Sequence record: MN850622.1
Length of the DNA: 64,000 nt
Strand: one strand, 5' to 3'
Source of the DNA: Escherichia phage mobillu
Shown in pieces: positions 33,082-37,275 of the stretch. Position 1 is the first letter of the stretch, and every line of letters starts with the position of its first letter. The notes under the pieces were generated by a model, which saw only the letters and a list, made by a program, of their open reading frames with translations, was not told where the DNA came from and did not search any database. A program made the position numbers and the translations under genes.

Positions 33082-33444
33082 ATGAAAGCATATCAAATTC
33101 TTGAAGGCACACACAAAGGCACTATTTATTTTGAAGACGGTACTCAAGCCCGGATTATTGTCTCTAAGACTTTTAAAGAAGACGCTATTGTAGACCCAGA
33201 AATTTTCTACGGTTTGAATGCCCGTGAAATTGAAATTGAACATCAACCTAAAGTTAAAATTGAAGGTGGTCAACATCTGAACGTTAACGTTCTGCGTCGT
33301 GAAACTCTGGAAGATGCAGTTAAGCATCCGGAAAAATATCCGCAGCTGACCATCCGTGTATCCGGTTATGCAGTTCGCTTTAACTCTCTGACTCTGGAAC
33401 AGCAGCGTGACGTTATCGCTCGCACCTTTACTGAGAGTCTATAA
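33082..33444 (+). CDS. autonomous glycyl-radical cofactor (GrcA/YfiD-like; T4 Y06I-type)
   Basis: C-terminal [60 protein letters not shown] contains the RVSGYA glycyl-radical motif; host-like codon usage in this tract. Confidence 0.85.
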
Positions 33445-34746: not shown

Positions 34747-35289
34747 ATGAGAAAAGCACTACTCGCTGGTCTATTTGCTCTTTCATTATCAGCACATAGC
34801 TCCGAGCATACTTTTAGTAATGTCCAACTCGATAACTTGAATTATGCTTATCAGTTTGGGGAACAGTTTTCTAAGGACGGAAAATTTAAAACGCATGAAA
34901 ATATGCATAAGAAAGGGCTTGGATACATAATGGCCGCAATACTATGGCAGGAATCATCCGCCGGTATTAATTTTAAAGATAAGAAAGGTCACCATGCGTA
35001 TGGAATGTTCCAAAATTATCTACCAACAATGAGGGCAAGAATTAACCAGCTTGGTTATAATATGACTGATGCCCAAATTAAGAAAATGCTATCTAAGCGG
35101 TCTAATTCAGCCAGATGGGCTTATATCGAATTTTCTTATTGGTTAAATATACATAACGGGGATATAAGAAAAGCTATATCCTCATATAATGCGGGATGGA
35201 AGACAAGTGCTGGAAGTAAATATGCTTCTGAAGTCCTAGAAAAGGCTAATTACCTTAAATCAAATAAACTACTGGAAATAAAAGAATGA
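34747..35289 (+). CDS. secreted lytic-transglycosylase-like (SLT-type) protein
   Basis: N-terminal signal peptide MRKALLAGLFALSLSAHS; ILWQESSAG resembles the SLT catalytic E-S motif. Confidence 0.6.
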   Translation: MRKALLAGLFALSLSAHSSEHTFSNVQLDNLNYAYQFGEQFSKDGKFKTHENMHKKGLGYIMAAILWQESSAGINFKDKKGHHAYGMFQNYLPTMRARINQLGYNMTDAQIKKMLSKRSNSARWAYIEFSYWLNIHNGDIRKAISSYNAGWKTSAGSKYASEVLEKANYLKSNKLLEIKE

Positions 35290-35633
35290 CCAAAATGTTG
35301 GCTTTAATAGTTAGCTTGGTTTCATTTAACGCTCTTGCTAATACTACATATACTGATGTAACGGAGTATACAAACAGAACGGCGTCTGATTATTGTGGTA
35401 AAAGTCAAGAGTGTAAAGTAGATTTTTCACAAAAATTGTTATACGCGTATAAAGACGGAGAAAAAGATGGGGCGTCTAGTAGGTTCAAGGCGTCTACCTT
35501 AATTAAAAGATACTATAAAAAATGGCAAATATTAGAATGCTCGGTGGCGGAACCTAAAGATAAGGCAGCATGCAATTCTATGGTGGACCGTCTAGTTGAC
35601 TCTTATAATAGAGGACTTGCAGCAAGTGATTAA
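35286..35633 (+). CDS. small secreted protein
   Basis: Signal peptide MTKMLALIVSLVSFNALA; four Cys. Confidence 0.6.
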   Translation: MTKMLALIVSLVSFNALANTTYTDVTEYTNRTASDYCGKSQECKVDFSQKLLYAYKDGEKDGASSRFKASTLIKRYYKKWQILECSVAEPKDKAACNSMVDRLVDSYNRGLAASD

Positions 35634-36093
35634 AAACTATATCAAGGGCGATATTGTCGCCCTGTTTTCTAAAGGTAATAATATTGCTCATGGGTGTAAT
35701 TGTTTTCATACAATGGGCGCCGGTGTAGCAGGACAATTAGCAAAGGCTTATCCAAAAATTCTTGAAGCAGATAAACTTCAAACCGAATTCGGAGACAAGT
35801 CTAAACTCGGGACTTATTCGGTTTATGAAAAATATTTTAAGACCCATAAAGCTTATTGCTTTAATCTTTATACACAGTTTGAGCCGGGACCTAATTTTGA
35901 GTACTCTGCTTTAATGAATTGTATAATAGAATTAAATGAATTCGGAAAGAATAAGATAACAAAGCCTGTAATTTATATGCCAAGAATTGGTGCAGGTATT
36001 GGTGGTGGAAACTGGGATGTCATCGAAGAGATTTTAGATACGTATTCTACTAAACTAGAAATTGTGATTGTTGATTGGGAACCGTTATTATGA
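35626..36093 (+). CDS. macro-domain-like protein (candidate ADP-ribose binding/processing)
   Basis: GTG start 10 nt after GAGGA SD; GDIV...HGCNCFHTMGAGVAGQLAKA and PRIGAGIGGG resemble macro-domain glycine-rich loops; no ATG in the N-terminal region. Confidence 0.5.
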   Translation: MIKNYIKGDIVALFSKGNNIAHGCNCFHTMGAGVAGQLAKAYPKILEADKLQTEFGDKSKLGTYSVYEKYFKTHKAYCFNLYTQFEPGPNFEYSALMNCIIELNEFGKNKITKPVIYMPRIGAGIGGGNWDVIEEILDTYSTKLEIVIVDWEPLL

Positions 36094-36302
36094 ATATACA
36101 TTATCCACATCCATATGACCCAAAGAATAAGGCAGTAATTATTCGTCAATGGGAACGCATTTGTCGTACCAAATGTCCAATTAATAGTCCACATGATGTA
36201 GATAAAGACTACATCGGAACATTCGTTGAATATACCTTTATTGATAAGAAAGGCCGTAAACAACATGTAGAAGAATATTGCTTAAAGGTGACATGGCTAT
36301 GA
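36090..36302 (+). CDS. hypothetical protein
   Basis: 70 aa ORF, ATGA coupling. Confidence 0.5.
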   Translation: MNIHYPHPYDPKNKAVIIRQWERICRTKCPINSPHDVDKDYIGTFVEYTFIDKKGRKQHVEEYCLKVTWL

Positions 36303-36505
36303 GTCAAACAAAAATTCTTACAGGTGCTAAATGCGAAAAATGCGAATGGCCTGTAGTTTTTGCTTTATGCAATGACGAAATGGCTTGTGATTTTGATTAT
36401 TGGTGTTACTGTTCGAACAAAGGTTGTAGCAATCATAAAGGTGAAGGGTTTTACTCAGGATTTTACCCTTACCCAGATTTCGTTAAAGAAGGTGAACCTA
36501 AATGA
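36299..36505 (+). CDS. Cys-rich small protein (zinc-ribbon-like)
   Basis: CEKCEW...CNDEMACDFDYWCYCSNKGC. Confidence 0.5.
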   Translation: MSQTKILTGAKCEKCEWPVVFALCNDEMACDFDYWCYCSNKGCSNHKGEGFYSGFYPYPDFVKEGEPK

Positions 36506-36684
36506 AATTGACTAAAGAAGAGAAAACTAAACTGTTTGAACTTATCCATGACCTATTGGATGAGCAAGCAGCCACCAATGCGTATGATGAATATGCTCCT
36601 TTGACGGACGAAGAATATCAAGCATTGTTGGAATCATTTGACAGGAAAGAACAAGAACTCATTGACTACGTGAATTCACTATAA
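36502..36684 (+). CDS. hypothetical acidic protein
   Basis: 60 aa ORF coupled to neighbours. Confidence 0.5.
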   Translation: MKLTKEEKTKLFELIHDLLDEQAATNAYDEYAPLTDEEYQALLESFDRKEQELIDYVNSL

Positions 36685-36693
36685 GGGACTCTT

Positions 36694-37275
36694 ATGGCTA
36701 GTTTAATTTTTACCTATGCCGCTATGAACGCTGGTAAGTCTGCTTCATTACTTACTGCCGCACATAACTATAAAGAACGCGGCATGGGTGTATTAGTTCT
36801 TAAACCGGCTATTGATACTCGCGATTCAAAAGGTGAAATAGTCTCTCGTATTGGTATTCGTCAGGACGCCAATATAATTACAAAAGACATGGATATCTTT
36901 GAATTCTATAAATGGGCTGCAGCACAAAAGGATATTCACTGCGTATTTGTTGACGAAGCTCAGTTCTTAACTACTGAAAAGGTGTATCAACTTAGTCGTA
37001 TTGTTGACGTATACAATGTGCCGGTAATGGCATATGGACTACGAACAGATTTTAAAGGTAATCTATTTGAAGGTTCTCAAGCATTAATGGCTATTGCCGA
37101 TAAGCTTGTTGAACTTAAAGGTGTCTGTCATTGTGGTAAAAAGGCCACAATGGTAGCTAGAGTCACGGAAGACGGACTTCCAATTACAGATGGCAGTCAA
37201 ATTGAAATTGGTGATACCGATAGATATGTGTCATTATGCCGGAAGCATTGGAACGATTTGACAGGGTTGTTATAA
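36694..37275 (+). CDS. tk: thymidine kinase
   Basis: 193 aa; P-loop AAMNAGKS, FVDEAQF, C-terminal CHCGKKATMVARV...SLCRKHW zinc motif. Confidence 0.95.
   Translation: MASLIFTYAAMNAGKSASLLTAAHNYKERGMGVLVLKPAIDTRDSKGEIVSRIGIRQDANIITKDMDIFEFYKWAAAQKDIHCVFVDEAQFLTTEKVYQLSRIVDVYNVPVMAYGLRTDFKGNLFEGSQALMAIADKLVELKGVCHCGKKATMVARVTEDGLPITDGSQIEIGDTDRYVSLCRKHWNDLTGLL

Follow-up and report, generated by a model that had tools for sequence, protein, structure and literature searches.

The 64,000-nt stretch of Escherichia phage mobillu DNA analysed here (sequence record MN850622.1, hereafter the window) encodes a stand-alone 17-kDa macrodomain protein, orthologous to T4 Tk.4 and syntenic with it. It is probably the early-made Mosigvirus form of Tk.4 (AdfM) and would shield phage DNA from DarTG2, a toxin-antitoxin defence of the host. 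This reading builds on what is established, namely the fold, the orthology, the conserved residues and, for T4, the anti-DarTG2 phenotype. The protein would act as a hydrolase on thymidine-linked ADP-ribose, using a Gln-based mechanism, and the T4 phenotype would extend to Mosigvirus. The gene and its initiation signals are the following:

35626..36093, + strand: ortholog of tk.4/adfM, 155 codons plus TGA, GTG start, single macrodomain
35611..35615, + strand: Shine-Dalgarno sequence GAGGA, 10-nt spacer to the GTG (read directly)
35626..35628, + strand: GTG initiation codon, in an 8-nt overlap with the last codons of vs (GTGATTAA)

The translation of 35626-36093 (+) carries GDIV...HGCNCFHTMGAGVAGQLAKA and PRIGAGIGGG. 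The program-made ORF list opens this frame at TTG 35596, and the start-type codons between the in-frame TAG at 35593-35595 and the conserved domain are TTG 35596, TTG 35617 and GTG 35626 only. The original prediction had chosen the GTG, 10 nt after a GAGGA Shine-Dalgarno sequence, and had seen no in-frame ATG. The coordinates are as claimed and the comparative data agree with this choice; the statement about ATG is true of the region preceding the domain, the earliest in-frame ATG being codon 30, within the conserved MGAG loop. GTG occupies the same codon in four close, near-identical Mosigvirus relatives. Two of these four (L005 and L006) carry an in-frame TAG two codons upstream, which leaves the GTG as their sole possible start and cuts off both upstream candidates, TTG 35596 and TTG 35617. 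The latter also lies merely 1 nt past the Shine-Dalgarno sequence. Among the 52 related loci compared, the aligned codon is ATG in T4 and most homologs, and the N-terminus M-I-x-x-Y-I-K-G-D is conserved. The homologous T4 site has GAGGA 11 nt ahead of its ATG, which is immediately preceded by a stop codon. The GenBank annotation of phage G2469 uses a start identical to GTG 35626, and strand β1 of the AlphaFold2 model starts at residue 2. The codons of the relatives, the G2469 annotation and the position of β1 together make the GTG start well supported. As to translation, the Tk.4 protein was detected in a T2 proteome (bioRxiv 10.64898/2026.06.19.733364).

Over the surrounding 2 kb, identity to Escherichia phages AV111, NicPhage, G2469, mogra, mar005P1 and others amounts to 99.0-99.5%, and these near-identical phages are classified as Mosigvirus, Tevenvirinae (T4-like coliphages). 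The gene order is that of T4, with a glycyl-radical protein at the T4 vs.6 position and regB-vs.1-vs-tk.4-tk.3-tk.2-tk.1-tk. The following elements were located:

35286..35633, + strand: ortholog of vs (valyl-tRNA synthetase modifier), overlapping the start of tk.4 from upstream (T4 synteny and G2469 annotation)
35645..35671, + strand: terminator-like hairpin (8-bp stem, loop of 3) with T-tract, within codons 7-16 of the tk.4 ortholog (consensus scan)
36090..36302, + strand: ortholog of tk.3 (DUF7202), its ATG overlapping the tk.4 stop (ATGA)
36090-36684: tk.3, tk.2 and tk.1, three small genes separating tk.4 from tk
36694-37275: tk

The gene had been described as next to tk. It does belong to the same cluster, upstream of tk, but is not its immediate neighbor, tk.3, tk.2 and tk.1 being located between them. 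The overlaps between vs, tk.4 and tk.3 probably reflect tight packing and translational coupling. The hairpin has a fold ΔG of -13 kcal/mol and also occurs in T4; the distant homologs L029 and L031 keep it with an altered stem, and the record of phage fPS-2 annotates the corresponding hairpin as a terminator.

The protein and T4 Tk.4 have identical length and align without gaps, with 130 of the 155 residues identical (84%). This identity and the same gene order make the gene the syntenic ortholog of T4 tk.4. The flanking genes and all family-invariant residues are common to both proteins. T4 tk.4 differs in having an ATG start and a 4-nt overlap with vs, as opposed to GTG and 8 nt in the Mosigvirus gene, and the proteins are distinguished by 25 substitutions, one of which affects the phosphate loop (K127 in T4, G127 in the Mosigvirus protein).

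T4 deprived of adfA and adfN remains resistant to DarTG2 (PMC11825919). A further factor was therefore expected, and tk.4 filled that gap. In the HIDEN-SEQ preprint of November 2025, in which T4 transposon mutants were screened on a DarTG2-expressing E. coli host, tk.4 was the sole significant hit (bioRxiv 10.1101/2025.11.20.689424). A clean knockout sensitised T4 to DarTG2 and the gene was renamed adfM (anti-DarT factor Macrodomain); it is dispensable on plain K-12, and the authors go no further than writing that an enzymatic release of ADP-ribose from DNA 'seems likely' (same preprint). A role in countering DarT-type DNA ADP-ribosylation, the first of those originally suggested for the gene in the window, is thus supported, because the published genetics concern a syntenic ortholog with 84% identity. 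The gene family and the counter-defence role of the T4 ortholog are already known. The novelty implied by the original prediction is consequently not sustained: macro domain annotations already exist for near-identical genes, and the T4 ortholog has a functional name. Labels in near-identical phage records include 'macro domain protein', 'T4-like phage protein with Macro domain, Poa1p_like family' and 'phosphatase'. Hundreds of T4-like genomes carry annotated members of the family, and little is new in this respect.

Pfam, structure prediction and fold search all agree with the macrodomain assignment, initially made by eye. The protein matches Pfam Macro (PF01661) with E=1.7e-6 and 28.4 bits, above the gathering cut-off of 22, over profile positions 2-117 of 118; Macro alone was matched in Pfam, neither ThsA_Macro nor other families being recovered. 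A profile built from 76 relatives and compared to solved structures retrieved BT1257 (1e-17), TARG1 (1e-16), SCO6735 (1e-14), Poa1p (2e-13), M. tuberculosis DarG (1e-12) and T. aquaticus DarG (1e-10). The AlphaFold2 model, computed from the alignment of these 76 relatives, is a macrodomain (pLDDT 95.8, pTM 0.91; 6 strands and 5 helices) with a predicted three-layer α/β/α fold and central mixed sheet. Profile search and structure prediction had both been proposed as checks of the assignment. Foldseek gave 137 matches at E<=0.001, the top 50 of which are all macrodomains or designed enzymes of that fold. The nearest solved folds (probability 1.00) are TARG1, Poa1p, DarG, BT1257 and SCO6735, belonging to the class named ALC1-like (TARG1/DarG) (PMC9411070). 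The two glycine-rich loops, MGAG (30-33) and PRIGAGIGGG (119-128), align with those of TARG1, DarG and SCO6735. The resemblance to macrodomains is far beyond chance.

The original prediction also mentioned Thoeris or other NAD-derived immune signalling, for which nothing found gives support. In such a role the protein would degrade or sequester cyclic ADP-ribose signals of the TIR/Thoeris type. One distant family member (P0250) does weakly match ThsA_Macro (26.5 bits), and a processing of ADPr-derived signals by some phage macrodomains has been proposed from comparative genomics (PMC9503650). However, the Mosigvirus protein does not match ThsA_Macro, and neither genetic nor biochemical evidence for a Thoeris role was found, so that this function is hardly credible.

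Another alternative is a small-molecule substrate. The protein matches PHROG 335 at E=6.5e-67, a group labelled 'phosphatase' whose source names include 'O-acetyl-ADP-ribose deacetylase'. It could accordingly be a Poa1p-like ADP-ribose-1''-phosphate phosphatase or an O-acetyl-ADP-ribose deacetylase clearing NAD-derived by-products, DNA not being its main substrate. Yeast Poa1p is the top structural match by TM-score (0.80). It has the H-x-C-N-C motif in common with the Mosigvirus protein, H22 matches Poa1p H23, and structures of Poa1p H23 mutants are among the PDB matches. Also in favor of such an enzyme, the genes of bacterial relatives stand alone in housekeeping contexts, and a Macro-NUDIX fusion (P0256) exists among the relatives. 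However, the 'phosphatase' and 'deacetylase' labels were inherited via distant homology to Poa1p and YmdB-type enzymes. Poa1p itself carries a Ser at the Gln position ('...CCLFTSSFGG') and its alignment breaks after residue 98. Moreover, no T4-specific source of ADP-ribose-1''-phosphate was found, and DarTG2 sensitivity is the sole genetic phenotype known for the ortholog. A main function of this kind is therefore unlikely, though phosphatase or deacetylase may be side activities. Phage macrodomains of the Tk.4 family labelled "phosphatase" are to be read as probable anti-DarT2 factors.

Residue conservation was counted in 261 relatives (90%- and 50%-identity representatives). The invariant or near-invariant positions are H22, G23, N25, C26, G33, A35, D49, N80, Y82, Q84, P119, G122 and G124. 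They are concentrated in four segments:

35689..35703, + strand: H22-G-C-N25-C26 motif with the predicted active-site His/Asn (H22 254/261, N25 260/261, C26 259/261)
35713..35730, + strand: M30-G-A-G33-V-A35, ADP-ribose pocket loop 1, GxG after strand 2 (G33 and A35 260/261)
35863..35877, + strand: N80-L-Y82-T-Q84, end of the central strand (Q84 and Y82 261/261, N80 260/261)
35980..36009, + strand: P119-R-I-G122-A-G124-I-G-G-G128, phosphate-binding loop (P119, G122 and G124 essentially invariant)

H22-G-C-N25 aligns with H24-V-C-N27 of SCO6735, and N25 with N22 of DarG; the M30-A35 loop aligns with the MGAG/MGKG loops of TARG1 and DarG. In profile alignments, Q84 occupies the position of catalytic K84 in TARG1, of K80 in T. 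aquaticus DarG and of the essential Gln85 in SCO6735, while D125, the second catalytic residue of TARG1, corresponds to G126. Since Q84 replaces the lysine and G126 replaces D125, the lysine mechanism of TARG1 and DarG cannot operate, and the predicted active site of the Tk.4 family is not DarG-like. The protein instead presents the hallmarks of Gln-type ALC1-like macrodomains, a Gln at the K84/K80 position together with a conserved Asn (Q84=Q85, N25=N27). The SCO6735 sequence was obtained through a PDB search with BT1257 as query, and hhalign paired it with the Tk.4 family with a probability of 98.5% (E 2.9e-15; H22=H24, N25=N27, Q84=Q85, G124=G128). A PDB query with the C-terminal half of the protein gave a SCO6735 alignment spanning the phosphate loop alone (G124 = G128).

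SCO6735 efficiently hydrolyses thymidine-linked ADP-ribose on single-stranded DNA and protects against DarT in vivo; its Q85A and Q85E variants are inactive and N27S nearly so. The mechanism proposed for it is water-mediated, with an Asn27-held Gln85 positioning the distal ribose (PMC9411070). Because the Tk.4 family has the key residues of SCO6735, a lysine-independent DNA de-ADP-ribosylation is the best-supported mechanism. DarT2 attaches ADP-ribose to thymidine in single-stranded DNA and thereby blocks replication. In the proposed scheme, the two glycine-rich loops of the phage macrodomain would most likely bind the ADP-ribose, and the thymine-ribose bond would most likely be hydrolysed to release ADP-ribose and intact DNA. 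Q84, in the lysine position, would be held by N25 with H22 nearby, as in the SCO6735 arrangement. Identity to SCO6735 and DarG is remote (~20-24%), and the DNA-positioning lysines K34 and K89 of SCO6735 correspond to A32 and G88. The pI is near-neutral (6.3 versus 9.9 for SCO6735). With A32, G88 and this pI, DNA binding is not obvious from sequence. Position 60 is nevertheless basic (K/R) in 259 of the 261 relatives, and this residue, together with R/K120, might substitute for K34 and K89 of SCO6735.

The anti-DarTG2 effect could also be mainly non-catalytic, the protein binding and inhibiting the DarT2 toxin or shielding ADP-ribosylated sites. In vitro inhibition of DarT has been reported for catalytically dead forms of SCO6735 (Q85A), DarG (K80A) and TARG1 (K84A), SCO6735 being the strongest inhibitor (PMC9411070). 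However, the Mosigvirus protein is a single domain of 155 aa without the C-terminal DarT-binding domain of DarG, and the conservation of H22, N25, Q84 and G124 in the 261 relatives points to selection on catalysis. Protection of this type is very improbable.

T-even phages encode several ADP-ribosyltransferases, which raises the possibility that the main substrates are ADP-ribosylated RNA or protein, either CmdT-type marks on host mRNA or the marks of phage Alt, ModA and ModB, the DarTG2 effect then being a side activity. The Alt and Mod enzymes, however, modify arginine, a linkage that macrodomains of the ALC1-like class are not known to cleave. The ability of T4 to do without tk.4 on plain K-12 also argues against such substrates. 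ALC1-like macrodomains are admittedly promiscuous, SCO6735 and TARG1 acting on Glu/Asp-linked protein ADP-ribose as well (PMC9411070), but CmdTAC defends robustly against T-even phages despite their tk.4 (PMC11618068). We therefore consider RNA or protein as main substrate to be quite improbable and retain DNA de-ADP-ribosylation by an AdfM ortholog.

Relatives of the protein are widespread. Tblastn identified them in 2,800 phage records, and a profile search of 1.84 billion representatives retrieved 17,809 clusters at E<=1e-3, of which 8,673 reach E<=1e-10 and 1,155 reach E<=1e-30. Fusions occur in part of the family, with NADAR plus DUF4326, with DUF4326 only or with NUDIX; P0250, mentioned above, is one of those carrying NADAR. 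NADAR is a guanine-ADPr DNA hydrolase fold, and its fusion to family members counts in favor of the proposed mechanism. A scan of reference genomes showed that 369 bacterial loci encode a relative. Neither DarT nor any recurrent neighbor family was found beside the bacterial relatives in the 65 loci analysed, and a NADAR gene lies just upstream in 3 of the 65. Given the lack of DarT and of a recurrent neighbor in these 65 loci, the phage gene seems to have been recruited from a large cellular family of stand-alone proteins and not to be a DarG antitoxin that lost its partner. As no DarT neighborhood is conserved in the bacterial relatives, the ancestral job of the family may have been something other than anti-DarT.

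Among known systems, human TARG1/OARD1 and yeast Poa1p come closest in fold among solved structures (Foldseek E 3e-10 and 2e-09). TARG1 has the catalytic dyad K84/D125 where the Mosigvirus protein has Q84/G126. Poa1p, which has the HxCNC motif in common, exceeds the Mosigvirus protein by 25 residues and carries Ser in place of the Gln. The Gln-type ALC1-like proteins SCO6735 (PDB 5E3B) and BT1257 (2FG1/2AFC) resemble the Tk.4 family in having Gln at the catalytic-Lys position, and have in common with the Mosigvirus protein an H-x-C-N motif and a PRIGxGxxGG.W loop. However, SCO6735 shows ~24% identity and does not carry C26, D49 and Y82, which are invariant in the Tk.4 family. The DarG macrodomain (T. 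aquaticus 5M31/5M3E, M. tuberculosis 5M3I) has the same fold (TM ~0.75), an Asn (N22) equivalent to N25, and the same target pathway, DarT2, as T4 Tk.4. It differs in its catalytic K80, located after an N-F-P-T strand, for which the Mosigvirus protein has Q84. It is also encoded beside darT with a C-terminal DarT-binding domain, whereas the Mosigvirus gene is flanked by vs and tk.3. The protein scores 31.3 bits with NCBIfam DarG (NF048014; cut-off 250), over model positions 4-146 of 338, and 33 bits with PADLOC DarG. Membership in the DarG family was rejected on score, catalytic residue, domain architecture and neighborhood.

A second phage stand-alone macrodomain countering DarTG2, gp104 of PhiKZ, has also been named AdfM (Cell Rep 2026, PMC13309987). 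It strips DarT2-made ADP-ribose from DNA in vitro, an activity weakened by N23A (PMC13309987). PhiKZ gp104 is genuinely DarG-like and of the Lys type, carries an FPTK motif, and matches DarG in the PDB (E 9e-25) and in PADLOC (133 bits). Its BLASTP alignment with the Mosigvirus protein spans just 23 residues and, gp104 being of DarG type, orthology between them was rejected. Perhaps, and we advance this only tentatively, two unrelated lineages of phage macrodomains bear the name AdfM, the T4 Tk.4 type, to which the Mosigvirus gene belongs, being no captured DarG antitoxin but an offshoot of a very large family of stand-alone Gln-type macrodomains (8,673 clusters at E<=1e-10), present on many bacterial chromosomes away from any DarT and using an SCO6735-like mechanism that does without lysine. 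In that case the cellular members may be general repair enzymes for nucleic-acid de-ADP-ribosylation, and the phage copies may cover substrates beyond the products of DarT2. Because T4-type AdfM is without the catalytic lysine of DarG, Q84, N25 and H22 should be tested before mechanistic conclusions and inhibitor or mutant designs are carried over to it from DarG or PhiKZ AdfM. The two AdfM proteins have an analogous role and a common fold but are not orthologs and differ in their key catalytic residue.

The start of tk.4 carries a terminator-like hairpin that lies within the coding sequence, in codons 7-16:

35609-35671, + strand: terminator-like hairpin and Shine-Dalgarno pairing region (sequence and minimum-free-energy fold)

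The hairpin reads AGGGCGAT-ATT-GTCGCCCT and is followed by GTTTTCT. In the minimum-free-energy fold (dG -19.1 kcal/mol, z = -2.9) the U-tract 3' of the hairpin pairs with the Shine-Dalgarno region UAGAGGAC. Both the hairpin and this pairing are kept in T4, where AGAGGA/UUUUCU becomes CGAGGA/UUUUCG. The hairpin is also present in two distant homologs, L029 and L031, the latter with an altered stem (GGGAGAT/ATCTCCC); the other tk.4 homologs compared are without it. It is annotated as a terminator in Yersinia phage fPS-2. The tk.4 hairpin could serve either to terminate the regB-vs unit or to control translation.

The fPS-2 gene was compared with that of T4 (L001):

L003 1501-1980: tk.4 of Yersinia phage fPS-2

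As far as the hairpin, over its first ~13 codons, this gene matches T4 exactly, and the upstream vs region also resembles that of T4. Beyond the hairpin, protein identity to T4 falls to about 58%. This suggests that recombination has joined two sequences in this gene, with the junction at the hairpin or close to it.

In some Tk.4 relatives the macrodomain is joined to other ADP-ribose-processing domains: Macro-NADAR-DUF4326 (P0250, 472 aa), DUF4326-Macro (P0244, 302 aa) and Macro-NUDIX (P0256, 247 aa). The Macro-NADAR fusion would bring thymine-ADPr and guanine-ADPr DNA hydrolase folds together in a single protein. The genome scan also placed a putative NADAR-like gene directly 5' of a Tk.4-like macrodomain gene in three bacterial loci, called by eye from the motif FSNF..EH.FQA.K and including:

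L116 3444-3995: putative NADAR-like gene, directly upstream of the Tk.4-like gene (motifs read by eye)

No conserved neighbor of the Tk.4-like gene was found in the remaining 60-odd bacterial loci. In Acinetobacter phage vB_AbaM_B09_Aci02-2, a macrodomain homolog (H46, 86217-86672; 36% identity) overlaps or adjoins a gene whose annotation is putative nicotinamide phosphoribosyltransferase, which hints that in this lineage the macrodomain is tied to phage NAD+ salvage.

The name AdfM designates both PhiKZ gp104 (DarG-like, Lys-type; PMC13309987) and T4 Tk.4 (Gln-type; bioRxiv 10.1101/2025.11.20.689424). These are non-orthologous phage macrodomains, each named independently, and moving annotation between them would be misleading.

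Further upstream, at the T4 vs.6 position, the phage encodes a small GrcA/YfiD-type protein, a glycyl-radical module that stands alone; it matches the C-terminal Gly_radical domain (Pfam, E 3.9e-18) and has an RVSGY motif:

33082-33444, + strand: 120-aa protein, Pfam Gly_radical match

Both immediate neighbors of tk.4 overlap it:

35286-35633, + strand: vs, 3' end overlapping the tk.4 5' end
36090-36302, + strand: tk.3, 5' end overlapping the tk.4 3' end

The tk.4/tk.3 overlap is ATGA. The vs/tk.4 overlap is GTGATTAA (8 nt), whereas in T4 it is a 4-nt ATGA; the end of the vs reading frame therefore differs between the two phages.
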